Shown one piece after another: positions 5,124 through 23,976 of a DNA stretch of 40,251 bases (the stretch's first letter is position 1; each line of letters begins with the position of its first letter). The DNA lies in NCBI GenBank assembly GCA_964454415.1, contig CAYVYD010000001.1, forward strand, positions 1-40,251, written 5' to 3'. The notes beneath the pieces are model-generated. The model saw only the letters and a list, made by a program, of their open reading frames with translations, was not told the DNA's origin and did no database searches. This DNA comes from an uncultured Hyphomicrobiaceae bacterium. GTDB taxonomy: Bacteria; Pseudomonadota; Alphaproteobacteria; Rhizobiales; Methyloligellaceae. The position numbers and the translations under genes are program-made.

Positions 5124-6890
5124 TCAAGCCGGGGCTCGTCCCCGCGCCCGCTTCAATCGTCCCTCGCGCAGCTCGAACACCAGATCCGCGGCCTTGCGCG
5201 GCTGGTCGCGATGGGTCATCAGCAGCACCGTCGTCTTGCCTCGCAGCGCCTTCAAGGTGCCGAGGATCCTGGCCTCGGTTTCCTGGTCTAGCGCGCTCGT
5301 CGCCTCGTCCAGCAGCAACAGCCCGGGTCCGCGGGCAAGCGCGCGGGCGAGCGCGATGCGCTGGCGCTGACCGCCCGAAATCCCCTTGCCGCCCTCGCCG
5401 ACGACCCGCTCGTAGCCGCCCTCCATGGCGGCGATGAACTCATCCGCGCAGGCGAGCCGCGCCGCTTCCTCGACGGCGGCGGAATCCAGGGACTCGTCGC
5501 CGGCGCGGATGTTGTTGGCGATGGTGTCGTGGAACAGCAGGCTGTCCTGATCGACGTAGCCGATCGCCTTGCGCCAGGTCTCGGTCGGGATCTCGCGCAG
5601 GCTGCGTCCCCGCGCGATGATATCGCCCCCGTCGAGCTCGGTCAGGCCGAGGACGGCGTCGATCAGCGTCGTCTTGCCGGCGCCCGAGGGACCGGTGACC
5701 ACCGCGAAGGCGCCGGGCGGGATCTCGGCCGAGGCGCCCTCGATCACGGGCTCGCCGCCATAGCCGATCGCGACCTCGATCAGCTCGAGCCCGATCGGCC
5801 CGGTGAGCGCTTCGCCGGGCACCGGGCGGGTGTGCTCGCGCATCGCCGCCGTCTCCCGGGCGAGCTCCAGCGTCGAGGAGAAGGCGGGCAACAGGATGTT
5901 GAGCGAATGCAGCGCCTGTTGCAGCGTCGAGAGGCGCGGATAGAGTCTGGCGAACAGCGCCAGCACGACCAGCACCGCCGCCAGGTCGGGCGCCAGGGCG
6001 CCGGTTCCGAGGACGAGGGCCGAGATCAGGATGACCGGCGCGAACAGCTCGACGACCGCGCGCGAGAAGCCGGGATCGAAGATGTAATGGAAATAGCTCC
6101 GCTCGCGGCTCCGCGCCTCGGCCGCGAAGTCGCGGCGCGCCGCGCCTTCCAGGCCGAACACCTTCATCACCTTGATTCCGGCGACGTATTGGGTGATCAG
6201 CGCCGTCATCGACCCGTCCGCCTCGATCAGGTCCCGGCCCACCCTGTCGGCGTATTTGGCGAGCGGGCGCATGACGACGATCAGCACGAGCGCGGCCACG
6301 GCCAGGAACAGCGTGAGCCGCCACGAAATGACGAAGGCGAGCGCCGTATAGACGGCGATGAAGAACGCGGCACCCGTGAACACCATCAGATGGATGAAGG
6401 CGTTGGCCATCTTGTTGAGGATGTCGCCGGTCAGATTGTTGACCGCCTGGGCCATGGTGCGGTGCCGGAACAGCGCCCATTTGGCGGCGACGAGGCCGTC
6501 GAACTGCGCTTCGAGCCAAGCGCTGATATAGGCCGCCTGGCAACGGCCCGAGACGTATTGGGCCGCCAGGAAAATGGCGACCTGAAGGGCGACCGCCGCG
6601 ACGATCGCCACCGCCAGCACGGGAAGCGTCATGGGAAGACCGGCCCGGGCGGCGAGGCCTGCGACGAGCGCGGTCACCGGATCGCTGCCCGCCCCCTCGC
6701 CCCCCAGCCCGATCTCGCGCAGCAGCGGCAGCAGCAGCGCGACCGCCAGGCCCTCGAGCACGGCGGTGAGACCGGTGAGCGCGAACAGCGCGCCCGCCAG
6801 CCAGCCGAGCTTGGCGTAAATGTCGCGTATGAAGGAGACGATCAGCGGTCCGCCCGCCCTGTGGCCGCGGCGACTCCCGCCCGGCGGCAA
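5124..6890 (-). CDS. fused TMD-NBD ABC exporter (MsbA/PglK-like)
   Basis: The N-terminal ~330 aa form six-helix-type hydrophobic segments. The C-terminal NBD has Walker A GPSGAGKTT, signature ISGGQRQRIALARAL and Walker B LLLLDEATSALD. The start is a TTG at 6890 and is uncertain. Confidence 0.85.
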   Translation of the reverse strand: MPPGGSRRGHRAGGPLIVSFIRDIYAKLGWLAGALFALTGLTAVLEGLAVALLLPLLREIGLGGEGAGSDPVTALVAGLAARAGLPMTLPVLAVAIVAAVALQVAIFLAAQYVSGRCQAAYISAWLEAQFDGLVAAKWALFRHRTMAQAVNNLTGDILNKMANAFIHLMVFTGAAFFIAVYTALAFVISWRLTLFLAVAALVLIVVMRPLAKYADRVGRDLIEADGSMTALITQYVAGIKVMKVFGLEGAARRDFAAEARSRERSYFHYIFDPGFSRAVVELFAPVILISALVLGTGALAPDLAAVLVVLALFARLYPRLSTLQQALHSLNILLPAFSSTLELARETAAMREHTRPVPGEALTGPIGLELIEVAIGYGGEPVIEGASAEIPPGAFAVVTGPSGAGKTTLIDAVLGLTELDGGDIIARGRSLREIPTETWRKAIGYVDQDSLLFHDTIANNIRAGDESLDSAAVEEAARLACADEFIAAMEGGYERVVGEGGKGISGGQRQRIALARALARGPGLLLLDEATSALDQETEARILGTLKALRGKTTVLLMTHRDQPRKAADLVFELREGRLKRARGRAPA

Positions 6891-6947: not shown

Positions 6948-7676
6948 CTATCTGCCACGGCGCTGGCCGCCGCTCTGCCGCCGGACCAGCGAGGGCTCTT
7001 CCGCGTCGAACATCGGCGCCAGCTCGGAGGCATAGGGACGCAGCTCCTGGGCGATGATCCGCAGGCTCTTGCGGATCTCTTCCCTCCGCGCCGGCGTCAC
7101 GCGTTTGAGGGCCTCGGCGAATTCGACGATCGATTGGGAGGCCAGCCTGCTGACGTTTTCCGGCTTGGCGGCCTCCTTGAGCCGCGCCATTCCGAGATTG
7201 GCCGCGCGGATCCCGCTCAGCACCGGGATCATGGCCAAGGCGATCACCAGGATCACGACGACCGCAGCGATGCCTGCGAACCAGCTCCTCCCCGATGCCC
7301 GCCGGCGGTCCGCTTGGTCCTTCGGCAACGCCTCGGCCAGCGGCGCGCCCGGGGCTGCTTGTGGCACCGCGTCGGTCGGCGGCGCATCCGCCTTGTCCTG
7401 TTGGGCTGACTCGATCCCCTGTGCGGGCACTATCCGGTAGTCCGGCGCCGGGAACCCCGCCTCCGTCATCTTTTCCAGAACCGCCGATCTGAGCCTGATG
7501 AATTCGTTGTAGGCCTTGGTCAAATCGGCCTTGCTGACGGCAATTTCGAGCGCGGGATCGACGACGCTGTACAAGTTTCCGCGCTTCTCCACCTCGATCA
7601 ACACGGGAGGAATGCTGGATTCTTGCCGCTGCCTGCGCTTGGGCGCCGGCCTTTTCGCGTCCTTAGCAGCCCCCAT
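6948..7676 (-). CDS. hypothetical bitopic membrane protein
   Basis: 242-aa ORF with an ATG start, a basic N-terminus, a central TM segment (WFAGIAAVVVILVIALAMIPVL) and a helical C-terminal ~80 aa. It overlaps the upstream gene end by 14 nt. Confidence 0.6.
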   Translation of the reverse strand: MGAAKDAKRPAPKRRQRQESSIPPVLIEVEKRGNLYSVVDPALEIAVSKADLTKAYNEFIRLRSAVLEKMTEAGFPAPDYRIVPAQGIESAQQDKADAPPTDAVPQAAPGAPLAEALPKDQADRRRASGRSWFAGIAAVVVILVIALAMIPVLSGIRAANLGMARLKEAAKPENVSRLASQSIVEFAEALKRVTPARREEIRKSLRIIAQELRPYASELAPMFDAEEPSLVRRQSGGQRRGR

Positions 7677-10365
7677 TCGAGCCTCCCAAATTGATCACGT
7701 CGCTGAAATATTCGCGTCCCGCGCGCCGTGCGCTGACCGGGCGAACCGATACCACGATCCGGCCTGTCAGGGTCCGCGGCAGGGTTAGCCTCCTGACGCC
7801 GCTGACCTCGATCACCGGCTCGACGCGCTCCATGTCATTCCGGTCCGGCGGACGCGAACCGCACAACTCACCCCGCGTGTCGACCCGGTAAACCCGGACG
7901 ACCGACGCTTTTTCGGATTCGCCGTCCTGTTGGGCGTAATCGTAGCGGATCTGAACGGCCCTGTTTCCATTATTGGCGGGCGACACCTGGGTCTCGACAT
8001 GGCGGCCGGGCGCACGCGGCGTCAGGTCGCGCAAAAAGGGAGGCGCGGTCCAATCTAGCTTGATTATGGCCCAGGAATCCGACTCCTCCTTGTCGATGGC
8101 GAGGAGCTTGTGCCGGAACGGCCGCCACTCGTCGGATCTCGCCTCCTTCACCAGCCCCAGATTGCGGCAGCCGGGCAATGGATGACCCTGTAGCTGCCGT
8201 ATCGCCCTGACGGGAGTTGGATTGAGAAAGCAAACGAACAGGTCGGGCCGCCTATAGGACGGATTGGTCTTGGCGTCGGCGAGCCAGACGACGTGGCCGG
8301 AAAATATCGGCTCGAATCCCGATGCCGTTTGTTCGTAGCCGCCGGCCGCGAACCCCCAATCGGTGTAACCCCAACTGCCCGACTTCACGGCGAAGGGGAC
8401 GGCATAGGTGTTCGATACGATCGTGCTTCCCTCGAGCGGTTGTTGGGCCAATGCGTCGATCCAAGCAAATTGATTGGGCGGAAGCAGCAGCGCGCACGCC
8501 CCTTGCGCCCAAATCCAATGCAAACCCATCGCCGCGGCGGCGAACACACCGAATCCCCCCGCCGGACGCAACGCAACCCGCATCCGCCGCGCCAAGCCGG
8601 ATTGTCCCGCGATTTGCCCGATGATGCCTGCACGTTCGGAAAGTTCGCCGGCCGCCGCCAAGGTCACATAGATCGCCAAGGCGACGGCAGCGGCCACGTG
8701 CGCCACCAGGACGGTTTGGTCGCGGTCCAGATAGCCGCTCCAAACATAGCCGGGAAACAGGCCGCCCATGACGGCCACGGCGATCGCTCCCGAAGCGAAG
8801 AACCCATAAAGACGGCCCCAACCCCGGTCTCCGCGTTGCGGGTGCGGCGGCACCAGGATCGCCACGCACCAGAGCGCAATCGCCGCGACGATCGCGGCTC
8901 CCTGCAGCACGAACCTGCCCGGAGGGGCGAGCATTTCGAGCCATAGGATCTGCTGGGTGGGGTCGTAGAGGCCGCTCTCGATGACGCCCCACCAGAGGAG
9001 CGCGAGCAAGAACAGGGTGCAGCCGGTCATGTGTATCGTCGCCGCGCTTGCGTTCGGTCCGGTCGTCAGGCTGCGTTCGAGGACGCGGAAACCGGCAACA
9101 CCGATGAGAACGCCCATGGCGGCGCAAACCGCGGCCACGGCCTGCCAGTCGAGCCCCCCCAGAGTGGCACGCGCCGACCACAGATCGGAAAGCCACAGCA
9201 CCTGGAAGACGAGCAAACCGCTGAGGGCGGCTGCGGCGACCGAGATCACCGGCCTGTAACGTCCGATCGAGTCCCGCTCCTGCCAGCGGCGAACCGCCAT
9301 CGCCGTGGCGTTGCGTATCGCAAATCCCAGCAACGCCACCATCGTCATCAGCGTCACGAAAGGCGTGAGGGTTTGCAAATGCCATCGCACGAAGGACGGC
9401 CAGAAATGCTCCAGCACTCCATCGGTGCGGTTCGAGGCGATGTTGTAGAAGAAGGCGATATTCCTGTCGCCGTAGAACGCCTCGATCAGCGCTTGAGCCG
9501 GCGCGCCGCCTGCCGCGAAGTTGCGAGCGAAGAACGTGAATCTCGCATCCGTCAGCGCGTCTTCCCAGCCGAGATAGCCCACCACCTGAAATAATAGAAC
9601 GACGAGCGAAGCGACGGCGCCGAGCCCCATCGCGCCCCAGCCGAGCAACAGACGCCGCCAATCGCGGCGCAACCGCCAGGCGAGATAGAGCCCGGTCATG
9701 GTGGCGGTAAAGCTGACGAACGCGAATTCGTAATAAAACAGGAAGAGGCAGTTGACGAATATCGGAGGCAACCAGCGCCAATTTTTCGATTGCGCGTAGA
9801 GTTCGGCGGTCAGCAAACTCGAAAAGATGAAGAAATGAGTCCAGATCCGGTAGGTGTTGGCCTGCCACTGGGCGAAGTAAAGGTAATCGGTGATCAGCAC
9901 CAGACACGCCAACAGCGCGAAACGGTGACCTGCGCACGCCGTGAAGAACCGGAACGCCATGAAGACCACGGCAAGCCCGGCGGTAAACGTCGTAACGGTG
10001 ATCTGGCTCTCGATCGATCGCAGACCCAACAGGTGCAAAACCGCGGCGAACAGGCGCGGGACGTTGCCCTGATGGGTATGCACGAAGGGGTGAGCCTCGG
10101 CCGACGGGCTTGCCGCGTCGTCGGCAAGCCCGAAGCTTTTGGCCGGGCCGCGTTCGATCAGGTTCCTGGCGTGATTGAGCGTGGAGTAGGACTCGTTGTT
10201 GTCGAGCACATAGGGCTTGAAGTCGCCGGCATAGAGCAGGCTCGCATAGACGATGACGTAGACGCCGAGCAGGACGGTCAGGCAGGTGCGGGCATCGAGC
10301 TTCGTCCAGGCTGAAAACAATGGCGCTCCCATGGCTTGCCGCGCGAACTGAACAGTGCTGGACAT
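7663..10365 (-). CDS. large polytopic membrane protein (P900), candidate GT-C-type glycosyltransferase; paralog of 26114..28375 and 35951..37871
   Basis: 900-aa ORF with an ATG preceded by GGAG at a 9-nt spacing. About 630 aa contain many hydrophobic helices, followed by a ~270-aa soluble C-terminal region. The first loop carries DNNESY...HPFVHTH, a motif shared with two other genes in the window. The function is an inference. Confidence 0.75.
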   Translation of the reverse strand: MSSTVQFARQAMGAPLFSAWTKLDARTCLTVLLGVYVIVYASLLYAGDFKPYVLDNNESYSTLNHARNLIERGPAKSFGLADDAASPSAEAHPFVHTHQGNVPRLFAAVLHLLGLRSIESQITVTTFTAGLAVVFMAFRFFTACAGHRFALLACLVLITDYLYFAQWQANTYRIWTHFFIFSSLLTAELYAQSKNWRWLPPIFVNCLFLFYYEFAFVSFTATMTGLYLAWRLRRDWRRLLLGWGAMGLGAVASLVVLLFQVVGYLGWEDALTDARFTFFARNFAAGGAPAQALIEAFYGDRNIAFFYNIASNRTDGVLEHFWPSFVRWHLQTLTPFVTLMTMVALLGFAIRNATAMAVRRWQERDSIGRYRPVISVAAAALSGLLVFQVLWLSDLWSARATLGGLDWQAVAAVCAAMGVLIGVAGFRVLERSLTTGPNASAATIHMTGCTLFLLALLWWGVIESGLYDPTQQILWLEMLAPPGRFVLQGAAIVAAIALWCVAILVPPHPQRGDRGWGRLYGFFASGAIAVAVMGGLFPGYVWSGYLDRDQTVLVAHVAAAVALAIYVTLAAAGELSERAGIIGQIAGQSGLARRMRVALRPAGGFGVFAAAAMGLHWIWAQGACALLLPPNQFAWIDALAQQPLEGSTIVSNTYAVPFAVKSGSWGYTDWGFAAGGYEQTASGFEPIFSGHVVWLADAKTNPSYRRPDLFVCFLNPTPVRAIRQLQGHPLPGCRNLGLVKEARSDEWRPFRHKLLAIDKEESDSWAIIKLDWTAPPFLRDLTPRAPGRHVETQVSPANNGNRAVQIRYDYAQQDGESEKASVVRVYRVDTRGELCGSRPPDRNDMERVEPVIEVSGVRRLTLPRTLTGRIVVSVRPVSARRAGREYFSDVINLGGSNGGC

Positions 10366-10422: not shown

Positions 10423-11733
10423 CTACCGGGCCTTGTCGCGAGCGCCCACGCCCAGCGTCCGCAGCGCGCGATAGTAAACGTCCGTGAGTGGCTCCGATTG
10501 CGACCGCGCGCCGGTGTCGTGCATGCGTTCGGGGAGCGACTTGATCTCCCACCACCACGACCCAGCCGCGCCGTAAATGGTGAACAAAGAGACGAATCCG
10601 ACCGCCACGAGCGCCGCTTGCGTGGCGTTGCGCTCGCGCATGAATCGCATCGCCTTCACCGAGGCGGCGAAAATCGCCGTCGCCACCGCGACAACGATCA
10701 ACCGCGCTGCCAGTTGCACGAATACCGATTCAGGAGCCGAGAGCGAGGTTTCGGTGTGCGTCACGGCGACGAAGGCCATCGCGGCCGGCGTGAAGACCAT
10801 CGCCGCCAGAACGATGGCGCCCGTATCCACGGCCGGCATCAACTCGCGTGCGCCCAATGGCTGTCCGAATTGCCACGCCTGAGCCACCAGCGTCACGACC
10901 GCTAGCGCGACCACGCCCACCGCGAGCAACGCTTCGCCTTCGGCAACGATCCGCCATTGCCCCAGCGCCAACGCGGCGAGGGCAAGGGCGAACGCAAATC
11001 CCAGCCACCTCGACGAAACCTGGCCCCGTCTCAACGCCAAATCCATCACCGCGACACCGAAAAGCATCAATCCGCCGAGTGTCAAGTGAAACGCGATCGT
11101 CGCGGCCAGCAGGGCATAGCCCGCCTCCAAACGCCCGCTCCAGCGGTTGGCCAATACGGCCATGAAGATCAGCACCACCGTCGATTTAGGCCAGATGCTC
11201 AGCGGCGATAGCGCCTCTCCCGGGTCGACGGCCAGCACGATCAGGTTCAGCAAATTGTCCAGCCCGCCGAACGACATCAGATGATCGCTTCCCGAAGGAC
11301 CCGGCAGAAACCCGGTGAGGGCCGCGATGCTCACCGCGAGCGCGAAGGGAGCGTCCATTTTCGGCACCCGCCACAGACCACCGGTGGCAACGGCGATACC
11401 GATGACGAGAGGAATGGCCAGGCCGACGCCGATCGCCACGGTTAGATTCGCCGCAAAGAGCCGGGCCGCCGCATAGCCCGCGACCGCGGCGACAGGATAG
11501 TTTTTCGCCGAAAGCTCGCGCCGCCTGAGTTCCTGGGCCTGCTCCGGCACCGCGGTCGCATGTTGCCCGAGCGCGTGTTCGGCGCGCTCCGGCTCGAACC
11601 AGCTATATCCGATAAAGTGAATGTAGAAGACGTCCGACTTGGCGGTAAGCGCCGTGGAGAGATGGAACAGGCCCGCGGCTGCGGCCGTGACGATCGCGCA
11701 AATCAGGAAAGGTCTAAGGCGGAAAATTTGCAT
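10423..11733 (-). CDS. polytopic membrane protein (P436), hypothetical; possible Wzy/ligase-like role
   Basis: 436-aa ORF with an ATG start and roughly 10 hydrophobic segments. I recognise no diagnostic motif. Confidence 0.65.
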   Translation of the reverse strand: MQIFRLRPFLICAIVTAAAAGLFHLSTALTAKSDVFYIHFIGYSWFEPERAEHALGQHATAVPEQAQELRRRELSAKNYPVAAVAGYAAARLFAANLTVAIGVGLAIPLVIGIAVATGGLWRVPKMDAPFALAVSIAALTGFLPGPSGSDHLMSFGGLDNLLNLIVLAVDPGEALSPLSIWPKSTVVLIFMAVLANRWSGRLEAGYALLAATIAFHLTLGGLMLFGVAVMDLALRRGQVSSRWLGFAFALALAALALGQWRIVAEGEALLAVGVVALAVVTLVAQAWQFGQPLGARELMPAVDTGAIVLAAMVFTPAAMAFVAVTHTETSLSAPESVFVQLAARLIVVAVATAIFAASVKAMRFMRERNATQAALVAVGFVSLFTIYGAAGSWWWEIKSLPERMHDTGARSQSEPLTDVYYRALRTLGVGARDKAR

Positions 11734-11751: not shown

Positions 11752-12582
11752 CTAGCGCGGCGAGGCTCCCCCACCAAGAATTGGGATCAGCGGTTCTTTT
11801 CCCTTCGGCACGAGGAATACGTTGTTTGAGTCGGCCGACCGAGCATCGTCTTCCAGAGTGAGCCGCCGGAATGCGTCCTTGTCGATATCGTAGGCGAAAA
11901 TCAGGTAGTCGTGCCGTTTGCAAAACTCAGCGAAGGCCGCGACGCCCACTTGACAGGCCTCGACCATCAGGAATGGACGCGTCCGTTCGATGGTTTTCTC
12001 AGCCCCGGCCAGCACGTCTGCTTCGTGCCCCTCGACATCGATCTTGATGATCGCCGGCGCGAGATCGAGCTCGTCGATGGGCACGACCGGCCACTCCGCC
12101 GCAAGCACGTCGGTGTCGTCGCCAACCTTCGGTCCGAAACTCTCGCGCACCGCGGAGAGAACCTGCTGCTTGTCGGTCGAGGTGAAGGTGTGCAGCACGA
12201 CCGATTTGTGGCGCGGCGTGTAGAAAGTGAGGGTTTCCCGCTTGCGGCCGGCACCGGTCAATCGGTACTCGAATCCGCCGATCCGGCGCCCGACGCGCCG
12301 CAACGCCTTCTCGTGCCGGGGATCGGGCTCGAGCGACAATATTTCATAGCTCTTGTTCAAACGCCTGAAGGAAAGCGCCGAAATGCCGTTATTGGCGCCG
12401 ACGTCGAGAAACAGCCCGTCGGGCTCTCGCGCGAAGTGTACCAACGCCAGATAGCTCTTGTCGTGTGGCAGCAGCAGCGGCGCGGCTCCGGCATAGCGCC
12501 ACATCAACCTCCATATGAATGGATTGATGGTGGAGATGTGCTTGGCGATTCGCGACAACGCCATCATGTCGGCTCGTGGCAT
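11752..12582 (-). CDS. FkbM-family SAM-dependent methyltransferase
   Basis: Motifs LDVGANNGISALSF and IIKIDVEGHEADVL are characteristic of the FkbM family. The start may instead be ATGATG at 12567/12564, overlapping the upstream stop. Confidence 0.8.
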   Translation of the reverse strand: MPRADMMALSRIAKHISTINPFIWRLMWRYAGAAPLLLPHDKSYLALVHFAREPDGLFLDVGANNGISALSFRRLNKSYEILSLEPDPRHEKALRRVGRRIGGFEYRLTGAGRKRETLTFYTPRHKSVVLHTFTSTDKQQVLSAVRESFGPKVGDDTDVLAAEWPVVPIDELDLAPAIIKIDVEGHEADVLAGAEKTIERTRPFLMVEACQVGVAAFAEFCKRHDYLIFAYDIDKDAFRRLTLEDDARSADSNNVFLVPKGKEPLIPILGGGASPR

Positions 12583-13607
12583 GCTTGTTCATCGTTGACC
12601 CGGTAAGCTGCGTTCAACGAGTGGTGCCGCAGCAACCGGTGCGGGGTCGACCAGACATCGAACCATCGCATGCGCAAAAACAAGTAGAGGTCGGCGAGCG
12701 GCGGCGCGCTCATTCGGGCCAGTCCCCGCGCCAGCCTCAAATCGGCGGGGTGAAGACCGAAGACCCCGGCGCTTTTGACGTCGAGCCTGGAGCGGGCGAG
12801 CTGACGCCGCAGGGCACCGAAGGCGGTGCGCTGCCGCCAGCGCCGGATATAAGTCCGTGAAAAGCGGCGCTCCGGATCGCCTTCCATCAGCGTGCACGCC
12901 CCGTCGAGCACCTCCTGCAGAATTCCGGCGTTCATGTTGGTGGTGTCCGACACGCTCCCCGCCCGCCGGCGCCAACTCATCAGCGGCCGCGGTATGAAGC
13001 AGGCGCCCTGCTTGAGCGCCAGCAAGCGGTGCATCATGCCGTCGGCGAAGCCGTGTAGCTCGGGCCGGAAGCCGCCTTCGGCCAAAATCGCCTCGCGGCG
13101 ATAGACCACCGACCCGCCGATGATCCAGCTGTCGTGATGGAGCATGACGCGGCGGGCCGCATCGGGGTCGATGAAGCCGTCATGCGTCTCGGGAACGGGC
13201 GAGGCGAACACGCCGCTGTCCGTACCATCCTCGTCGAGGACCCGGCACAGGCTCGAACACAGGCCGGTCCTGGGATACTTTTCCAGCAGGCCGCGCGAAA
13301 GGGCGAAGAGCCCGGGCAAGACCAAGTCGTCGGCGGCGGCGAAGAAGATGTGCGTGCTCGCCGCCTCGCGGGCGAATTGATTCATCGTCGCCACCACCCC
13401 CTGGGTGCGCTCGCGGTAGACCGGACGGATCAGCTTATGGCGCCGCGCGTATTGGGCGATGATCTCCCGGCTGCCGTCGCTTGAGCCGTCGTCGACGACG
13501 ACGAGCTCGTCGGGCGGCGGCGATTGGCCGAGCAGCGAGTCGAGCGCCTGCGGCAGATAGCGGGCGTCGTTCAGATTGGGGAGGATGACCGAAAGCGAAA
13601 AGCTCAT
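12564..13607 (-). CDS. family 2 glycosyltransferase
   Basis: ORF 12564..14033 trimmed to the ATG at 13607 (MSFSLSVILPNLNDARYL...VVVDDGSSDGS). This is the GT2 N-terminal Rossmann/DxD region. The upstream part of the ORF is Arg-rich junk overlapping the next gene. Confidence 0.85.
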   Translation of the reverse strand: MSFSLSVILPNLNDARYLPQALDSLLGQSPPPDELVVVDDGSSDGSREIIAQYARRHKLIRPVYRERTQGVVATMNQFAREAASTHIFFAAADDLVLPGLFALSRGLLEKYPRTGLCSSLCRVLDEDGTDSGVFASPVPETHDGFIDPDAARRVMLHHDSWIIGGSVVYRREAILAEGGFRPELHGFADGMMHRLLALKQGACFIPRPLMSWRRRAGSVSDTTNMNAGILQEVLDGACTLMEGDPERRFSRTYIRRWRQRTAFGALRRQLARSRLDVKSAGVFGLHPADLRLARGLARMSAPPLADLYLFLRMRWFDVWSTPHRLLRHHSLNAAYRVNDEQACHEPT

Positions 13608-13654
13608 ATGCCCGTTTCGTCTGCGCCCGTCGCCCGCCGGGATCCGGTCCGCGG

Positions 13655-14341
13655 TCAGCGGCTCTTGGGTCCTAATCCGATCGCGAGCAGGTAGTTGGCC
13701 ATCTTGTGGAAGCCCGTATGCACGACCTCGTCGTTCATGGCGAACATGCAGACCGACGAGAAGTGCCGCTCCATCACCGCCTTGAGGTCCGGCATCGACT
13801 TGCAGTTGACGTGACCGGCCTTGCTCTGGGGCGAGGCGTGGGGCTGGGATTCGAGCGACGGCATGCCGATGATGCAGGTGGCCTGCGGCGTCAGCGAGCG
13901 CGCGACGTTGCCCAGGAACCGGTCCTCCTCGGCGGGGGCTATGTGTTCCAGCACGTCGAGCGAATAGGCCGCGTCGTGAACGTCTTGCGTCGGGCCGGCG
14001 AGCATGTCGTGGACCCGGAAATCCACCGGCCACTTGTCGCAGGCCCGCGACGTCGCGTCCTCGATGAAGACCGGATCGAAGTCGACCGCCGTGACGGCCC
14101 CCGCCGCCTGGCGCACGATCCGGGTGCCGAAGCCGTCGCCGCAGCCGACCTCGAGGACCCGGCCCGCGCCCTCCAGCATCTTGGCCACGAATTTGTAGCG
14201 CGAAAGGGTGAAGACCAGCCGCTTGGGATCGTCATGCCAGGTCTGGCTCGTCATCAAGCCAAGCGATTCGAGGCCGCGTTCGCGCGCGTAGTCGACGCAG
14301 AACTGATATTGCGGTTCCTTGGTTTGCCTGTTCTTCGCCAT
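13655..14341 (-). CDS. class I SAM-dependent methyltransferase
   Basis: Motif I VLEVGCGDGFGT and post-I AVDFD, followed by SLDVLEHI. 228 aa. Confidence 0.8.
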   Translation of the reverse strand: MAKNRQTKEPQYQFCVDYARERGLESLGLMTSQTWHDDPKRLVFTLSRYKFVAKMLEGAGRVLEVGCGDGFGTRIVRQAAGAVTAVDFDPVFIEDATSRACDKWPVDFRVHDMLAGPTQDVHDAAYSLDVLEHIAPAEEDRFLGNVARSLTPQATCIIGMPSLESQPHASPQSKAGHVNCKSMPDLKAVMERHFSSVCMFAMNDEVVHTGFHKMANYLLAIGLGPKSR

Positions 14342-15994: not shown

Positions 15995-17281
15995 TCAGGC
16001 CCGGCGAAGCGCCGGCCGGCCCAGCGTGTAATGGTCCATCCCCGCCTCGCGCACGCGCCCGCCGTCGAGCACGCCATAGGGGTCGATGACGATGCGCCCG
16101 CGCATCGCCGCCGCCAGCGCCGCCACATCGACCGCGCCGTAATCGGGCCAAGGGGTCATGATCAGCAGCGCGTCCGCCCCTTCCGCCGCGCCGAGCGGGC
16201 TTGTTGCCTCTTCGAGCCGGGGATGATCGAGCCCCTCGGCCGGGACCACCGGATCGTGGACCCGCACCCGCATATCGCCCAGCTGGGCGATGGTGGCAAG
16301 GGCGGGAGAGTTCTTGGTCGAATTGGTGTTCTCCTTGTAGGCGAGGCCCCAGACCGCCACCAGCCGCCCGCCGTTCTCCGTGCCGAGATTTTCCCGCAAT
16401 GTTCGCGCCGCCCAGGCGCGCCGGTGACGGCTGTTGGCGAGCCACGCCGCCACCACGCCTGCGTCGGTTCCGTGCTGGGCGGCAAGACGGCTGACGGTGG
16501 CGAGATCACGCTCCAGATTGCCGCCGGCCAGGCCCAGGCCCGGCATCAGATAGGCGTGGTCGCCGATGCGGCGGTCGAGCCTCAGCGCCGGCACGATCTC
16601 CCGCCAATCCGCCCCCGTCTTCTCGCACAGCTCCGCCATCGTGTTGGCGACGCCGATCGAGCCGGCGAGACACATGTTGATGGCGATCTTGGCGAGCTCG
16701 GCGCTCTCATAGGCCATCGGCAGGATCGGACAGCCGAAGGCTTCGAGAAAGTGGCGATAGGGCGCGGGCAACGGCTCGGTCGGATCGGCGCAGCCGACGA
16801 TGAAGCGCTCGGGCTCCATCGCCCGCTCCATCGCCCGCCCGAAGATCAGCGTCTCCACCTGATAGTGGAGCGCGAGCCCCGCCTTCGCGCGCCGCCGCGT
16901 GTAGCCGGGCGGCACCTGCGCCAGGATCACGAGGGTAGCGTCCGGCCGCAGCGCCGGCATGACCGTTTCGATCAGCCCGTCGAGGGCGGCGAGATCGCTC
17001 ATGCCTTCATCGTCGGTGGCGACGTCGAGCGCGGCGAAGACCACATCGCGGGCGCCGAGATCCGCGGCCTCTGCGCTGAAACGCAGCCGGCCGCGGTTGG
17101 CGGCGGCGAGCTTCTCAAGACCCGGCTCGCTGATCGCGAAGGCGCCCTCGGTGCAGCGGGCGGCCCGCGCGCCGTCCAGGTCGAAGCCCACCGTCTCGAA
17201 CCCCTTGGCCGCGCTGGCGACGGCCGAGACCGTGCCGAGATGCGACAGGCCGGCGAAGCCTATCTTCGGGTTGTCGCTCAC
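15995..17281 (-). CDS. UDP-glucose/GDP-mannose dehydrogenase family protein (divergent)
   Basis: KIGFAGLSHLG N-terminal Rossmann motif, a central DRRIGDHAYLMPGLGLAGGNLERD segment, and a C-terminal nucleotide-sugar-binding-type region. A GTG at 17281 gives a GTGA overlap with the upstream stop; an alternative GTG lies at 17305. Confidence 0.8.
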   Translation of the reverse strand: MSDNPKIGFAGLSHLGTVSAVASAAKGFETVGFDLDGARAARCTEGAFAISEPGLEKLAAANRGRLRFSAEAADLGARDVVFAALDVATDDEGMSDLAALDGLIETVMPALRPDATLVILAQVPPGYTRRRAKAGLALHYQVETLIFGRAMERAMEPERFIVGCADPTEPLPAPYRHFLEAFGCPILPMAYESAELAKIAINMCLAGSIGVANTMAELCEKTGADWREIVPALRLDRRIGDHAYLMPGLGLAGGNLERDLATVSRLAAQHGTDAGVVAAWLANSRHRRAWAARTLRENLGTENGGRLVAVWGLAYKENTNSTKNSPALATIAQLGDMRVRVHDPVVPAEGLDHPRLEEATSPLGAAEGADALLIMTPWPDYGAVDVAALAAAMRGRIVIDPYGVLDGGRVREAGMDHYTLGRPALRRA

Positions 17282-18216
17282 CCGCCCGCGCCCTGCGCGC
17301 AGCACGCCGCGCCGAGGCGCTCGAGCAGGCCGTCGATGAGGATATCGCGGGAGAGGTCCGTCTGCGCCTTGGCCGCGATCAGTTCCTTGAAATAGTCGTA
17401 CTCAGCCTGCCAGGTGGGGTCGTCCTGAACCAGCGTCACGCGCTCCTCGGGTGGGCGGCCCGAGGGGAGCACGCGCCGGCGCCGGATGAAGGTCGCCGGA
17501 CCCCATTTGCAGAGCGAGGAGATGTGCGCGCTCCCCTCCTCCGCGAGCACGTCGCAGGTGAAATGGTTGCGCCACATCAATAGCGTCATCTCGAGCTCGC
17601 AGCGGGGGCTCGCCGTGGTGCTGCCGAGCACCACGTGATCGGGCGCGGCGTTCTCGAACCGGTCGGCCGAGACCAGCTCCAGTCCCTCCAGCGCCGCCTC
17701 GCCGAACCAGAAGAGCAGCGTGTCGAGAAGGTGGGAGCCGAGGTCGCCGAGCACGCCGCTCCCTTCATCGCGCCAGTTGGATTCGCGCACCAGCCGCGCC
17801 GTGCCGTTGCCGTAGAACATCCGGCACCGGTAGATGCGGCCGAGCTCGCCCGAGGCGACCAGGTCCCGCATGCGCAAGAAATGGGGCTCGAAGCGGTGAT
17901 TGTAGGCGGTGTAGCAGACCGCCCCCTTTTGCCGCGCCAGCGCCTGGAGCGCCGCGATCTCCTTGCCGCCGCCGTCCGCGAGCGGCTTCTCGACGAGCAC
18001 GTGCTTGCCGTCGCCGATGAGATAGGTGAGAAGGCCGAGCTTGGCGGCATCCGGCACGCAGGCCAGCACCGCGTCGTAGGCATCGAGCGGAACCTCGGCG
18101 ATATCGCGGTATTGGGCGGCCTTGTTTTCCGGGTCTACCGTGGCGACGACGTCGCCCGCCGCGATCCGCGCGCGCTTGGTCCCCTGCACGCCAAGGCCGA
18201 CGACCGCGACACGCAT
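17278..18216 (-). CDS. Gfo/Idh/MocA family oxidoreductase
   Basis: MRVAVVGLGVQGTKR N-terminal Rossmann motif and the EKP motif (LVEKPLA) typical of this family. The ATG at 18216 lies 1 nt after the upstream TGA. Confidence 0.85.
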   Translation of the reverse strand: MRVAVVGLGVQGTKRARIAAGDVVATVDPENKAAQYRDIAEVPLDAYDAVLACVPDAAKLGLLTYLIGDGKHVLVEKPLADGGGKEIAALQALARQKGAVCYTAYNHRFEPHFLRMRDLVASGELGRIYRCRMFYGNGTARLVRESNWRDEGSGVLGDLGSHLLDTLLFWFGEAALEGLELVSADRFENAAPDHVVLGSTTASPRCELEMTLLMWRNHFTCDVLAEEGSAHISSLCKWGPATFIRRRRVLPSGRPPEERVTLVQDDPTWQAEYDYFKELIAAKAQTDLSRDILIDGLLERLGAACCAQGAGG

Positions 18217-18217
18217 C

Positions 18218-19809
18218 TCACGCCCCACGCGAGGCCGATTGTCCGTCCTTGTCCCGCTCGTCCGCGATCAGCTGGAAGTTGGCCTGGGCCTGCAACCGCT
18301 GGATGCGCTGCCGCACGTCCTCGGGCGAGATCGGCACGTTGCCGTTGACCTCGCATTCTGCCGCCGCCGCCATGGCGCCCAGCACCGCGGCGATCACCGG
18401 GTTGCCGCCCGCCAGATGGCTCAGCGTCGCATAGGCGAGCAGCGCGTCGCCCGCCCCCACCGCGTCGACCACGCGCTCGGCGAAGCTGTCGAGCGCGAAG
18501 AAGGAACGCAGATCGTCGAGGTCGTTGCGGCTGCGGTAGCAGAGCAGGCCGCGGCGGCCGAGCTTCAAGATCAGGTTGCGGCAATTGGACGCCTCGAACA
18601 GGCGCCGCGCCAGCGGCCGGATCACCGAATCCTGGTCCCCCAGCGCGAACCGGGCCTCGCGCTCGTTGGGCGTGATCAGATCGAAATTCTGGAACTCTGT
18701 GATGTTGCCCCAGCGGCTCGCCACCTGGCTGTCGGCCACCTTGAAGAGACCGCTCGGAATGGCGGCGGCGAGCGTCGGTATGGTGTCGTGGTTGAAGATG
18801 CCGTGCCTGAAATCTGCGAACACGATGGCGTCGCCCTTGGTCGCCTCGACCGCCTGGGAAAACCGCTCGAAGATGCTCCCGGTGATCACCCTGTTGTCCA
18901 CCGTGTCGATCTTGAGCAGGCGCGTGTTCTCGCACACGATCGCGTTCTTGTGGGTCGTCGGCCGCGAATGATCGACGATGGCGTTCACCTCGACGCCCGC
19001 GGCCTCCAGGTCGTCGAGCACGAACTCCTTCCATTGGTCGTCGCCCAACAGCGTCGTGAAGCTGACCTTGGCGCCGGCCGCGCGCAGATGCTTGGCGACG
19101 ATGCCGGCCCCGCCGACGAAATGATGCTGGGATTCGTTACGCACCGAGATGGTGGGCGTCTTGCTCTGCCCGCCGATCATCGTCGTCTCGGTCAGCGTGT
19201 CGACGATGGTGTCGCCCACCACGTGGACCTCGAAGCGGCCCATGTCCTCCAGGGTGCGGCGCAAGTCGTCGAAGGTGAGGCCCTCGGCATCGAACAGCGA
19301 GAGCACCTTGTCGACCGCGAGATTGGGCGGCGATTCCTCGATCAGCTTGGAGGAGGAGTAGACGACGTCGCCGGGGGTGAAGATGATCTCGCCGCCATAG
19401 GCGTCGAGCACCGCCTTTTCCTCCGCCGTCTTGGGATGCAGGCCGCCCTCGGTATATTCGTAGCCCTTGGCGAAATAGTCCGGCTTCAGGATTTGCAAAT
19501 TCTCCAGCGGCGTGCGGTTGCGGTCGATCAGCACGTAGTCCACCGCGTGCAGCGCTGCCAGGTTCATCGCCCGCAGCGCCTCCGGCACGAAGGGGCGGAA
19601 ATGCGCCTTCTCGATATAGTCGTCGGTGGTGAGACTGGCGACCAGAATGTCGGCCTGCTGCTTGGCGTAGATCAGATGCCGCACGTGACCGGGATGCACC
19701 ACGTCGAAGGTGCCGTGGCACATGATGACCTTGCGCTTGCGCGGCGGCTGGCCGATGATTTCGGCCAATTCTTCGACCGTTCTTATTTTTTCTTTGTATT
19801 CGCCCGAAA

Positions 19810-19813
<4 letters not shown>
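18218..19813 (-). CDS. bifunctional nucleotidyltransferase (RfaE domain II-like, N-terminal) / PfkB sugar kinase (RfaE domain I-like, C-terminal)
   Basis: aa 32-43 read CHGTFDVVHPGH, the HxGH motif of the cytidylyltransferase superfamily. FRPFVP...VDYVLI...KPDYFAKGYEY resembles HldE domain II. aa 195-500 resemble the PfkB family, with DAVGAGD at 450-456. ATGA overlaps occur at both gene ends. Confidence 0.85.
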
Positions 19814-20816
<1,003 letters not shown>

Positions 20817-20820
<4 letters not shown>

Positions 20821-21818
20821 GCCGCCTGGAGCGATTTCAGCGTCCTTACGTTGAAATAGACGTCGTCGCTCATGCTGTTGGGCAGGTCGCCCCGCTTGAA
20901 GGCGCGGCACAGATCCACGACCGCGTCCTCGATGGAATGACGGGGGCTGAAGCCGAGCTCGTCGTGGATCTTGTCCGAATTGATGTGATAGGAGCGGATG
21001 TCGTCGCTCGGCGTGGTGGCGATCTCGATCTCGCCCTTCTCGGGGAATTCCCGCCCGACCACGCGCTTGACGATCTGAGCGATCTCCATGATCGACATGT
21101 TCTCATAGCCGCAATTGAAGGTCTTGCCGGCGATATTCTCGCCGTCGATCTCGATCAGCAGCTTGTAGAGATCGCACATGTCCTGGACGTGCAGATTGGG
21201 CCGAAGCTGGCTGCCGCCGAAGACCGTGATCTTGCCGTTGTTGACCGCGTGATTGGTGAGGATGTTGACCGAGACGTCGAGCCGCTGGCGGGGCGCGTAG
21301 CCGCACAGCGTCGCCGGACGGATGACGGTGCAGACGAAATCATTCGACTGATGCTTGAACAGCAGCGGCTCGCACTGGCCCTTGTATTTGTTGTAGAGCG
21401 TCAACGGCACGAGGGGGTGATCCTCCCGCACGTTGGGCTCGTCGGAGACGCCGTAGACCGAGCTCGAGGAGGCGTAGATGAAACGCCTCACCCCCGCCTC
21501 CTTCGCGGCGATCACTCGCGGCTCGAAGGCCTCGAGATTGACCGTCGTCGAGAGGCTCTCGTCGAGATCGAAGCTCGCGTCGTTGGAGATGCAGGCGAGA
21601 TCGATCAGCACGTCGACGCCGGCGCACGCCGCCGCGAACGCCTTCACGTCGCGTATGTCGCTCTTGATCAGGGTGAAGTGGGGATGATCGTGCGGCAGAA
21701 AGCCGTCGCCGAAATAGCAGATGTCGTAGGCGGTGACCTTGTATCCCAGCTCCAACAGCTGGGGACAGAGCAGGCTGCCCACATACCCCCCGCCGCCCGT
21801 CACAAGCACATGTTTCAC
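20817..21818 (-). CDS. NAD-dependent epimerase/dehydratase (extended SDR)
   Basis: MKHVLVTGGGGYVGS Rossmann motif, an SSSSVYG segment and the catalytic motif YNKYK. 333 aa. Confidence 0.85.
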
Positions 21819-21864
21819 GCTTCGGTCCTGAATGTTGTTGTTGGTCTTGCGCGCGATCGCCCCG

Positions 21865-22605
21865 TCAGGCGACGCTCCGTTTGAGCTTCAGCGTATCGAT
21901 GGCGTAGCCGGCCGCCGTGGCGTCCCGATAGAACATATCCACCGTCTCGCGGGAATACTCGTCCAGATCCTTCCCCACGAGATGGAGCTTGGCCAGAATG
22001 TCGTTGGTCACCGTGATGATGTGGCAGCCGACGGCGTCGGCGTGGAACAGGTTGAGCAGCTCCCGCGGGCTCGCCCACAGCAGCTCCGCCTTCGGCCGTT
22101 CGCGCAGAATTTCCAGTGCTTGCGCCATGTGCGGCGCCGGATCGACGCCGGTGTCGGCGACGCGGCCGGCGAACACCGACACGATCGCCGGCGTCTCTGG
22201 ATCGAGAGCGTCGCTTACGGCGCGCACCTGGTCGAGCGACAGGATCGCGGTCGCGTTCACCACCACGCCCTGCCGCGACAGGCGTCCGATCAGCCCGCAG
22301 GCGGACTCGCCGCGCGTGTTGGTGATCGGGATCTTGACGTTGACGTTGGCGCCCCAGGAGGCGATCTCGAGCGCTTGGCGCTCCATTTCGTCAAAGTCGT
22401 CCGCCAGCACCTCGAGCGAGACCGGCATGTCCGTGACTTCGCCGAGCAGCGTCCGGGCAAAGGCCTCGTAGTCCTCGACCCCCGCCTTGCGCATCAGCGT
22501 TGGATTGGTCGTGACCCCCTTGATCAAGGGATCGCGGCTCAGCTTCAGAATGCTTGGAAGATCCGCCCCGTCGGCAAAAATCTTGATTGAAAGACTTTCG
22601 GCCAT
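21865..22605 (-). CDS. transaldolase family protein (short TalC/FSA-type)
   Basis: ATG at 22605 (MAESLSIKIFADGADL). GVTTNPTL and NVKIP (Schiff-base Lys context) are typical of the ~220-250-aa transaldolase/fructose-6-P aldolase subfamily. Confidence 0.8.
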   Translation of the reverse strand: MAESLSIKIFADGADLPSILKLSRDPLIKGVTTNPTLMRKAGVEDYEAFARTLLGEVTDMPVSLEVLADDFDEMERQALEIASWGANVNVKIPITNTRGESACGLIGRLSRQGVVVNATAILSLDQVRAVSDALDPETPAIVSVFAGRVADTGVDPAPHMAQALEILRERPKAELLWASPRELLNLFHADAVGCHIITVTNDILAKLHLVGKDLDEYSRETVDMFYRDATAAGYAIDTLKLKRSVA

Positions 22606-22660
22606 GCCCCCGCCCCGCAAGATTCACGCAATACTTGTATTGAGTGTTAGCAACTCTCGT

Positions 22661-23197
22661 TCAACGAGACAATATCCAGCCCGCCGCCGCGCCGAGTCCT
22701 CCACATACGAAATCGGGGTCGCTGGGAGCGGATTCCTGCTCATAGGACTGGTCTATGAATATGGTGCGGCAACCGGCCCGCTTGCCGGCCTCCACGTCGC
22801 TGGCCCGGTCGCCTACCATGAAGCTCGCCCGTAAATCCAGGCCCATCGCCGCCGCCGCGCTTTGCAGCATGGCGGGCGCCGGCTTGCGGCATTGGCACCC
22901 CTCGTCCCGGCCATGGGTACATACCTCGATTCGGTCGATCGGCAAGGCCGAGTTGAGCTCAGCGTGCATGGCCTCCAGCGCGTCCGCCGAGATCAGACCG
23001 CAGCCGACGTCCGGCTGGTTGGTCACCACCACCAGCGCGAAACCCGCCGCGCGCAGGTCTTCGAGCGCGGCGGCCGCCTCGGGATAAATCCGGAAGTCCT
23101 CGATACTGCGCGGTGCGAAGGACCGCCCATCGCGGAACTCGGGGATGACGATAACCCCGTCGCGGTCGAGAAAGACCGCTCTTCTAGTCCCTACCAC
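22661..23197 (-). CDS. gmhB: D-glycero-D-manno-heptose 1,7-bisphosphate phosphatase-like HAD hydrolase
   Basis: AVFLDRDGVI, VVVTNQPDVG, the Zn-finger-like CTHGRDEGCQCRKP and MVGDRASD all match the GmhB pattern. There is no ATG; a GTG at 23197 overlaps the gmhA-like stop by 7 nt. The start is uncertain. Confidence 0.75.
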   Translation of the reverse strand: MVGTRRAVFLDRDGVIVIPEFRDGRSFAPRSIEDFRIYPEAAAALEDLRAAGFALVVVTNQPDVGCGLISADALEAMHAELNSALPIDRIEVCTHGRDEGCQCRKPAPAMLQSAAAAMGLDLRASFMVGDRASDVEAGKRAGCRTIFIDQSYEQESAPSDPDFVCGGLGAAAGWILSR

Positions 23198-23775
23198 GTC
23201 GTCGCCTTGGTTTGCAGGTCGGGATGCGAGACCAGGCAATGCCAGACCACCGCCTGAAACGCTTCCGTATGCGGCGTCACCCGATCGTCGTGCGCTTTGG
23301 GCACCACGACCACGGCGTCCCCGACCTTCCTTGCGTAGCCGCCGTCGCGCCCGACGATCCCGAAGATACCGGCGCCCCTCCGCCTTGCCAGCTCCAGCGC
23401 CCGCACCAGGTTGGCGCTGATGTTCCGCTCCAGATCGCCGCCGCCCACCGACATCACGAAGACGCCGTCGTTCTCGTTGAGCCGGCTCGTCTCGAGCCAG
23501 GCCGCGAACACGCTCTCCCATCCCTCGTCATTGGTGCGCGCGGTCAGCTCCGAGACGTTGTCGGTGGCGCAATAGGCCTCGATGCCGCAGAGCTTGCGGA
23601 AATCGTTGACGGCGTGCGAGCAATTGCCGGCGCCGCCGCCCACTCCCAGCATGAAAAGCCGTCCGCCGCGCTCCCGCAGCGCGGCGAGCGCCTGGGCCAG
23701 CGCCTCGACGTCCTTCGGCGGAATTGCCGCGGCGATGCGCGAGACCTCGCTCATATAGGTCTTGGCGTGGGACAT
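23191..23775 (-). CDS. gmhA: SIS-domain sugar-phosphate isomerase (phosphoheptose isomerase-like)
   Basis: ATG at 23775 (MSHAKTYMSEV...). SIS motifs are RLFMLGVGGGAGNCSHAVNDF and VFVMSVGGG. It sits adjacent to the gmhB-like gene. This is a divergent GmhA type, so the exact substrate is an inference. Confidence 0.7.
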   Translation of the reverse strand: MSHAKTYMSEVSRIAAAIPPKDVEALAQALAALRERGGRLFMLGVGGGAGNCSHAVNDFRKLCGIEAYCATDNVSELTARTNDEGWESVFAAWLETSRLNENDGVFVMSVGGGDLERNISANLVRALELARRRGAGIFGIVGRDGGYARKVGDAVVVVPKAHDDRVTPHTEAFQAVVWHCLVSHPDLQTKATTW

Positions 23776-23976
23776 TGGTACTTTGTCTTGCTCGCTCTCC
23801 GGCGCGCTCCCGCCGCGGCGGACTTGTGACGCCTTCCAATTGCGAATATGCATACCAGCCTTGGACGGTTCGCGCATTGATTGTCTTGGCCGTGCGGGAC
23901 AAGTTCATCGTGCGCCTCCTCGCCGGTCGGGCACGCCGGTCGTCCCCCGGCCGGGCGCCCAACAGCAGGCTTGCGC
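23776..23976. promoter_or_regulatory. divergent intergenic control region between the two largest operons
   Basis: 201-bp non-coding gap between divergent starts at 23775 (-) and 23977 (+). It contains a locally AT-rich patch with the perfect palindrome TATGCATA (23847-23854) and a duplicated TTGTCTTG octamer. Confidence 0.45.

Follow-up and report, generated by a model that had tools for sequence, protein, structure and literature searches.

Introduction

Glycosyltransferases of the GT-C fold make or decorate envelope glycans, which set antigenicity, phage and antibiotic susceptibility as well as symbiosis. The family GT136 was reportedly founded in 2024, and new GT-C sequence families are said to be still emerging singly. 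Among the closest described systems are three-component periplasmic ones, namely GT136 (Citrobacter youngae ORF12), GtrA/GtrB/Gtr*, CsbB/GtcA/YfhO and ArnC/ArnEF/ArnT (PMC11127046). In the present study a 40 kb stretch of DNA from an uncultured Hyphomicrobiaceae bacterium (positions 1 to 40,251 of contig CAYVYD010000001.1; 63-70% G+C), here called the window, was analysed; this contig also occurs in a JGI metagenome besides the NCBI metagenome-assembled genome. Codon-position G+C content and Pfam/NCBIfam scans delimit a single envelope-glycan locus from about 5.1 to 39.9 kb, inside which lie the three genes treated here: A (7663-10365, minus strand, 900 residues), the founding copy of subfamily A; B (26114-28375, plus strand, 753 residues) of subfamily B; and C (35951-37871, minus strand) of subfamily C. 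Their open reading frames were found at the coordinates given in a preliminary description of this DNA. We propose, with a probability of roughly 0.7, that A, B and a decayed C are paralogues in a new sequence family of predicted GT-C-fold periplasmic glycosyltransferases using polyprenyl-phosphate sugars.

Compared with GT136-type systems, the gene context of the locus implies the same logic, with a synthase for the lipid-phosphate sugar, a flippase and a GT-C enzyme, in different guise. The synthase is of GT2 type here, often as a fusion with a short-chain dehydrogenase/reductase (GT2-SDR), as opposed to a UbiA-type phosphoribose synthase in the GT136 system; the flippase candidate is PF03706-like, with GtrA in one fusion only, as opposed to MATE or GtrA in the three-component systems; and several paralogues occur per locus, unlike in GT136-type systems. 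A C-terminal beta-rich domain is common to both, that of ORF12 being a carbohydrate-binding module (PMC11127046). Likewise, the acidic pair D-x-x-E after the first transmembrane (TM) helix is D31/E34 in ORF12 (PMC11127046) and D55/E58 in A.

With ArnT (GT83), PMT1/2/4 (GT39), DPY19 and STT3/PglB/AglB (GT66) the family shares the predicted fold, the topology with a cytoplasmic N-terminus (N-in) and a loop with interfacial helices and an acidic residue. As in GT-C class A enzymes, 11-15 TM helices, a C-terminal extracytoplasmic domain and periplasm-facing conserved residues are predicted, whereas sequence similarity to these enzymes is not detectable. The motifs differ as well: the family displays E ... 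GLxD/E ... PxxYTH, oligosaccharyltransferases DxD/WWDYG and PMT enzymes DE. A further comparison is offered by the mycobacterial Emb/Aft enzymes (GT53, GT85, GT89), which also come as paralogous GT-C arrays per locus, each enzyme having some 15 TM helices and a carbohydrate-binding-like domain at the C-terminus. Of these, AftA, AftB and EmbA/B/C were among the structural matches obtained with Foldseek, scoring below oligosaccharyltransferases and ArnT. They differ from the family in showing no sequence similarity to it and in their sugar pathway, which uses decaprenyl-phospho-arabinose as against a heptose-like pathway here; the family is hosted by Gram-negative lineages and by Chloroflexota.

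Homology of the three genes

The product of gene A is identical to the annotated protein P0001. The three genes, which had formerly been aligned by eye, are homologous beyond chance. Composition-adjusted BLASTP resulted in E=4e-9 for A-B, E=6e-9 for A-C and E=3e-5 for B-C. Separate homologue sets (58 matches for A, 52 for B and 43 for C among 5.8e9 proteins) yielded three independent subfamily alignments, and comparison of these with hhalign gave probabilities of 98.0% for A-B (E 2.5e-13), 98.2% for A-C (E 4.1e-14) and 93.9% for B-C (E 1.6e-7), as opposed to at most 1.7% (E >=0.03) in reversed-sequence controls, in which the hydrophobic composition is kept. With a pairwise identity of merely 24-34%, and with C-terminal motifs that fall short of significance, the resemblance could still be suspected of being a composition artefact of hydrophobic proteins that form no true family. 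We regard this as hardly conceivable: the BLASTP E values and the profile comparison with its reversed controls ruled out chance and composition, the conserved motif is of polar, not hydrophobic, character, and cross-subfamily matches with hidden Markov models (HMMs) were obtained from other genomes.

Significant homology is confined to about 300 N-terminal residues (A 32-337, B 19-325), and a second, weak segment (A 540-671 / B 383-496) reached 42% probability (E 2.6e-4). The pairing of NTYRIWTHFF with NPLRAWHYVALF, put forward in the preliminary description, lies within the significant core, and A and B show no variation at R173 and W175. The C-terminal motifs named there, '[VM][ST]N', 'DYW..Y..F..C' and '[IV][IK][FL]D', could be paired as proposed but lack statistical support, as the C-terminal domains alone gave hhalign probabilities of 0.2-2.8% (E 0.016-0.32).

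Predicted structures and relation to GT-C enzymes

Two AlphaFold2 models were built independently from family alignments, with a mean predicted local distance difference test (pLDDT) of 81.9 and a predicted template modelling score (pTM) of 0.82 for A, and 82.3 and 0.84, respectively, for B. Both display a cytoplasmic N-terminus, TM1, a loop of ~70 residues with two short interfacial helices, a TM bundle and a C-terminal domain composed of an alpha/beta part and a beta-sandwich. The succession of TM1, a long outside loop with two interfacial helices and TM2 is a hallmark of GT-C enzymes and is seen in the models of A and B. In A, TM1 comprises residues 25-46, the loop helices residues 58-72 and 101-112 and TM2 residues 118-145, with ~15 TM helices in total; in B, TM1 comprises residues 11-33 and the loop helices residues 45-60 and 85-95, with ~11 TM helices. 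The four additional helices of A are situated between the two homologous segments.

Foldseek searches of the PDB returned GT-C enzymes at ranks 1-9 and 12-15 for A and at ranks 1-11 for B, with a probability of 1.0. Model A matched STT3B (6s7t, 1.2e-4), STT3A, yeast Stt3, AglB, AftA, EmbA and PglB, followed at lower ranks by AftB and ALG12. Model B matched AglB (3wak, 4.9e-5), STT3B (6s7t, 1.7e-4) and ArnT (5ezm, 2e-4, TM-score 0.42), furthermore DPY19, PglB and Pmt4 (TM-score 0.50), and lower down AftB and PimE. The remark in the preliminary description that the first loop is reminiscent of GT-C glycosyltransferases is thus borne out, since each model retrieved essentially only GT-C enzymes at the top and possesses the hallmark loop. 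The narrower analogy to ArnT/PMT is not favoured over others, for oligosaccharyltransferases, ArnT and PMT were nearest together. Judged from these models, the relation to solved GT-C structures is at fold level only.

The C-terminal periplasmic domain of A (residues 628-900; 7666-8484, minus strand) consists of an alpha/beta part followed by an FN3/Ig-like beta-sandwich, for which FN3 and beta-sandwich matches were found with Foldseek, and it probably binds the acceptor or a carbohydrate. A Foldseek search against viral structures gave just FN3-like matches to this domain and was uninformative. Enzymes of the Wzy/WaaL/SEDS type (O-antigen ligase/polymerase, RodA/FtsW) were absent from the 50 listed Foldseek matches of either model, and neither A, B and C nor the 39 family members compared below matched Pfam Wzy_C or FTSW_RODA_SPOVE.

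Conserved residues and membrane topology

Conservation was counted over 39 sequences of the three subfamilies, in A numbering. The most conserved feature of the alignment is the first-loop motif noticed in the preliminary description, i.e., Glu, then Gly-Leu-x-Asp/Glu, then Pro-x-x-[HY]-[TN]-His, which is kept in all three subfamilies. The position of E58, at the start of the first loop helix, holds Glu or Asp in 37 of the 39 sequences, and 38 of them have H98; L80 and D/E82 occur nearly throughout, and P93, [HY]96 and [TN]97 are conserved, as are Q260, G266, D/E273, R/K281 and F297 further downstream. In A the first periplasmic loop (residues 47-117; 10015-10227, minus strand) reads D55-N-N-E58 ... 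G79-L-x-D82 ... P93-F-V-H-T-H98-Q-G-N, in B (residues 34-100; 26213-26413, plus strand) E43-C-G-E46 ... L67-E68-N-L-G ... P76-S-L-Y-T-H81-N-V-N, and the corresponding motif of C (37497-37694, minus strand) is V-E65-E66-A-A-Y ... L-L-Q-D90-F ... H-P-Y-V-Y-N-H107-M-P-P. Further conserved and periplasm-facing positions in the membrane domain of A (residues 25-627; 8485-10293, minus strand) are R173, E213, D273, R281, W475, Y540 and R548.

Membrane sides were assigned from model helices, hydropathy and a positive-inside count. The loops of A contain 17% Lys plus Arg inside and 7% outside, so that the positive-inside rule is obeyed with N-in topology. The 84 positions of A that are at least 90% conserved fall into predicted periplasmic segments (64) and TM helices (20), with none in cytoplasmic loops; the 88 conserved positions of B split likewise into 60 periplasmic, 28 TM and no cytoplasmic ones. 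E58, D/E82, H98, D/E273 and R/K281, the polar residues conserved universally, all lie on the periplasmic side close to the membrane interface, and so do R173 (shared by A and B) and E213 (shared by A and C). A periplasmic location of the C-terminal domains agrees with their conserved Cys pairs, which are C712/C733 for A and C533/C621 for B.

In GT-C enzymes such as ArnT, PglB and PMT, the first loop provides, near its beginning, an acidic residue that acts on the acceptor, and basic residues or His bind the lipid phosphate. GT136 conforms to this pattern (PMC11127046). The periplasmic conservation found here is as would be expected of a GT-C active site, and the residues may cluster in space. 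By analogy, E58 is proposed as catalytic acid/base, and H98, R173 and R281 are proposed to bind phosphate.

An entirely different explanation would be that A, B and C are not glycosyltransferases at all, being transporters or flippases, scaffolds or non-sugar transferases that share a many-helix architecture. TM-scores of at most 0.5 leave room for this, and GLUT3, CLC and MelB did appear in the lower part of the Foldseek lists. These transporters matched at a probability of 0.1-0.2 only, compared with 1.0 for GT-C enzymes; conservation is concentrated in periplasmic loops, with invariant acidic residues, His and Arg, and nowhere on the cytoplasmic side; and fusions and synteny, described below, tie the family to glycan enzymes. 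As polar conservation restricted to the periplasm points to an outward-facing catalytic site and not to an alternating-access carrier, we consider this explanation very improbable.

Decay of gene C

Gene C was formerly listed as a gene of 520 codons, which has to be corrected: neither at 520 nor at 640 codons is it intact, and two frameshifts together with an in-frame TAG mark it as a pseudogene. Its lesions were defined by tblastn with the intact homologues P0112-P0114 (635-642 residues). The N-terminal ~446 codons are intact (36534-37871) and the N-terminal open reading frame extends over 36309-37871 (minus strand); three-frame translation placed the frameshifts near 36510-36534 and 36241-36265, and the TAG at 36074-36076 precedes the ancestral stop at 35951-35953. 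An identical 520-residue product with an out-of-frame tail was retrieved from three independent assemblies, which differ from each other by one or two point substitutions. Assembly error as the source of the frameshifts was rejected on these grounds, and the lesion is real and present in the population because three independent assemblies carry it.

Consequently, at most two copies are active in this genome; elsewhere all three subfamilies are intact. That three copies stand for three specificities, as had been suggested, can only be inferred. Taken as a whole, the observation in the preliminary description is largely correct and its GT-C interpretation is supported; what emerges is a credible new sequence family within a well-known enzyme class, its third copy here being decayed.

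Family status and distribution

The earlier statement that A, B and C belong to no named family was confirmed, as sequence matches in Pfam, NCBIfam and the PDB are missing and all homologues are labelled 'hypothetical'. Pfam and NCBIfam scans of A, B and C gave nothing at E<=1, and none of the 39 family members matched a Pfam family, hence no glycosyltransferase family either. Among the homologues collected for the three subfamilies (58, 52 and 43 matches) there is none with a Pfam domain covering the family region. Sequence and profile searches of the PDB with the subfamily profiles produced noise only (a zinc transporter, designed proteins) and no GT66 chain. Literature searches led to general GT-C papers and to papers on three-component systems, and no published description of the A/B/C family was found among them. 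The family is set apart from curated families by profile search; from GT136 it differs, as far as the published description goes, in its partner genes. It extends a known enzyme class and introduces no new principle.

An HMM search of 1.84e9 representatives revealed 1135 members at E<=1e-3, 576 of them at E<=1e-30, which amount to ~1,100 clusters at 50% identity in at least seven phyla. A scan with a degenerate pattern, using one genome per species, detected 40 loci in highly diverse lineages. Carriers were found in Alpha-, Beta- and Gammaproteobacteria (among them Legionellaceae and Polynucleobacter), Chloroflexota, Rokubacteria, Planctomycetes (Gemmatales), Verrucomicrobia (Opitutaceae) and Alicyclobacillaceae, and cultured carriers include Bradyrhizobium (B. 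liaoningense, WP_454645536.1), Tardiphaga (sp. 42S5, WP_320447607.1), Polynucleobacter (sp. IMCC 30228, with two copies) and Legionellaceae. The family is thus real and widespread, yet rare. Sets of two to four paralogues per locus are common, in combinations such as A+B, A+B+B, A+A+B, C+A and three or four copies of A. Recognition as GT-C enzymes would permit the annotation of loci whose family members now read 'hypothetical'.

Gene neighbourhood and proposed function

For the analysis of neighbours the window proteins were searched against 41 loci, composed of the 40 loci of the scan and a locus of Bradyrhizobium liaoningense (L003). Most frequent were the beta subunit of a pyruvate-dehydrogenase-E1-like pair and the GT2 domain of the GT2-SDR protein (14 of 41 loci each), followed by the E1-like alpha subunit (13), a second GT2 protein and the YfhO-like protein (10 each), the PF03706 protein and a methyltransferase (9 each) and an ABC (ATP-binding cassette) exporter (7); heptose-type genes recur near family members, too. 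The loci that share these neighbours belong to different phyla. The gene order PF03706, E1 alpha, E1 beta, methyltransferase, GT2, SIS, A, ABC was met in two unrelated metagenome-assembled genomes (L012, L018), and the Bradyrhizobium liaoningense locus contains a syntenic block at 52-70% identity beside a family member. Three natural fusion proteins are informative: P0257 (2166 residues) unites a part homologous to the YfhO-like protein of the window, a GtrA/DPMS TM domain (GtrA_DPMS_TM, E 3.8e-14) and a family A protein, P0266 (2113 residues) a YfhO-like part and a family A part, and P0243 (1656 residues) an Acyl_transf_3 domain and a family A part.

The GT2-SDR fusion protein is encoded at 29970-31730 (minus strand; Pfam Glycos_transf_2 and adh_short). 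The closest PDB match of its GT2 domain is Dol-P-Man synthase (5mlz, E 3.4e-9), with ArnC matching as well, and the protein is a candidate polyprenyl-phosphate sugar synthase for a lipid-linked donor. In the fusion this Dol-P-Man-synthase-like GT2 is joined to a classical FabG-like SDR, and the SDR is missing from the GT2 in many related loci. The fusion suggests a redox modification of the lipid-linked sugar, loosely comparable to DprE2. The LPG_synthase_TM or 'flippase-like' membrane protein (38953-39930, minus strand; PF03706, E 4.5e-32), which matched NCBIfam TIGR00374 'flippase-like domain' below the cut-off, is a candidate flippase for the lipid-linked sugar.

The YfhO-like GT-C protein (32654-35944, minus strand, 1096 residues; Pfam YfhO, PF09586, E 7.7e-11) adjoins C, and YfhO is also of GT-C type in three-component systems. 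Given its recurrence and its presence in P0257 and P0266, it is closely associated with the family but is not homologous to it at profile level (hhalign 0.5-1.9%), which makes it a partner and not a member.

A putative source of the sugar is the heptose-type precursor gene set at 18218-23877 (minus strand), which encodes an HldE-like protein, a GmhA-like SIS protein, a HAD phosphatase, a transaldolase and two 4,6-dehydratase/epimerase-like SDRs. The HldE-like protein has an inverted domain order, nucleotidyltransferase then PfkB kinase, and scores far below the HldE cut-off. Six genes downstream have syntenic counterparts in Bradyrhizobium liaoningense, at 52-70% identity. Adjacent to this set lie the E1-like alpha and beta genes (23881-24993 and 25024-26058, both plus strand). 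Comparable E1-like pairs, Plm8/Plm9 and AviB1/B2, add a two-carbon branch from pyruvate to keto-sugars (PMC4802897), and by this likeness the donor sugar may be C-branched.

According to the proposed mechanism, a cytoplasmic Dol-P-Man-synthase-like GT2, here the GT2-SDR protein, would load a modified and probably heptose-derived sugar onto polyprenyl phosphate, and a flippase-like protein, PF03706 here and a GtrA domain in the one fusion, would bring the lipid-linked sugar to the periplasmic face. A and B would then pass the sugar on to a glycan that is growing or has been exported; the ABC transporter may have exported this acceptor, or it may be made in the periplasm with participation of the YfhO-type enzyme. 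Conservation and topology place the putative active site at the periplasmic membrane interface, where it would be made of the first loop (E58, D/E82, H98) together with R173, E213, D/E273 and R/K281, with E58 as catalytic base and with His and Arg/Lys holding the phosphate. Binding of the acceptor would fall to the beta-rich domain at the C-terminus, which is periplasmic, and different paralogues would form different linkages. E58, H98, D273 and R281 constitute a testable candidate catalytic motif.

Several points weigh against this proposal. TM-scores to GT-C enzymes are 0.32-0.50 at 9-14% identity, and Foldseek E values of 1e-4 to 1e-5 are not extreme. Any sequence-profile link to the GT-C Pfam families is missing, as it is to the YfhO-like protein. 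The GT2 assignment is founded on weak matches to several NCBIfam polyprenyl-phosphate transferases, all below cut-off, and donor, acceptor and the flippase role of PF03706 were all deduced from gene context. Moreover, the top structural neighbours are oligosaccharyltransferases, enzymes that use pyrophosphate-linked and not monophosphate-linked donors. The family could accordingly consist of oligosaccharyltransferase- or ligase-like GT-C enzymes, which would move a ready-made glycan in one piece from undecaprenyl-pyrophosphate onto protein, lipid or glycan; STT3, AglB and PglB as best Foldseek neighbours of both models, the large C-terminal periplasmic domain in A and B and the MsbA/PglK-type exporter two genes from A would all suit such enzymes. 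However, WWD[YW]G and the DxD/DK motifs are absent from A, B and the subfamily consensus, the first loop bearing D-N-N-E or E-C-G-E where GT66 enzymes have DxD/ExD, and ArnT, PMT and DPY19 score nearly equal to the oligosaccharyltransferases. In addition, partners like a DPM1-like GT2 and a flippase-like or GtrA protein are typical of monophosphate-sugar systems, and several paralogues per locus suit stepwise addition of sugars better. En bloc transfer is hence regarded as unlikely, and polyprenyl-phosphate-sugar-dependent transfer is preferred.

In a more far-reaching reading, which we consider tentative and rather doubtful, a periplasmic glycan assembly line not described so far would have the family at its centre. 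In it, arrays of two to four paralogues and a YfhO-type GT-C enzyme would build or extensively decorate a polymer from lipid-linked unusual sugars, e.g., C-branched and/or methylated heptose derivatives, made by the co-conserved E1-like pair, the SIS/HAD/transaldolase/HldE-like genes and GT2-SDR, with PF03706 as flippase. Such an assembly line would occur in Proteobacteria, Chloroflexota, Planctomycetes and Verrucomicrobia and could be likened to mycobacterial arabinan/lipomannan synthesis. If this were true, the family would found a new CAZy glycosyltransferase family. The locus also points to an uncharacterised sugar pathway, in which heptose-type genes are combined with a thiamine-dependent E1 pair, and suggests that PF03706 proteins may flip lipid-linked sugars.

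Further genes of the locus

The ABC exporter mentioned above (5124-6890, minus strand) has fused transmembrane and nucleotide-binding domains of the MsbA/PglK/HepA type and is possibly the exporter or flippase of the acceptor glycan. The second GT2 gene is located at 12564-14033, and the locus contains, in addition, genes for methyltransferases, a nucleotide-sugar dehydrogenase, a GFO/IDH/MocA oxidoreductase and three SDR epimerase/dehydratases.

Several membrane proteins of the locus belong to no family in the Pfam/NCBIfam scans. A polytopic protein of 436 residues with ~9-10 TM helices (10423-11733, minus strand) and a membrane protein of 540 residues with at least six TM helices (28335-29957, plus strand) had neither Pfam/NCBIfam matches nor profile similarity to the A/B/C family, and they could be further glycan-assembly enzymes, e.g., a polymerase, a ligase or a GT-C enzyme. 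A bitopic protein of 242 residues without family assignment is encoded at 6948-7676 (minus strand), its start overlapping the stop of gene A by 14 nucleotides. It may be a partner or regulator of A. Its gene also directly follows an A homologue on a JGI contig (L001), and tblastn matches were obtained at other places in loci L006 and L012. Further paralogues of A, B and C among the other membrane proteins of the window were rejected, as hhalign gave at most 5% for the proteins of 436, 540, 242, 167 and 185 residues, the YfhO-like protein and the PF03706 protein.

In the syntenic locus of Bradyrhizobium liaoningense a DUF6044 protein (767 residues) and a DedA/VTT-domain protein are encoded at 17011-20002. 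The C-terminus of the former resembles that of the YfhO-like protein encoded in the window, with 37% identity over 73 residues (E 8e-10). No literature on DUF6044 was found, and as a relative of A, B and C it was rejected, being unrelated to them. The two small proteins of 167 and 185 residues are encoded side by side in the window (37882-38385 and 38382-38939, both minus strand). Each begins with about three TM helices and has a C-terminal part that weakly resembles a winged helix; neither protein has a family assignment, and the pair is kept beside GT2-SDR in two other loci (L009 and L030).

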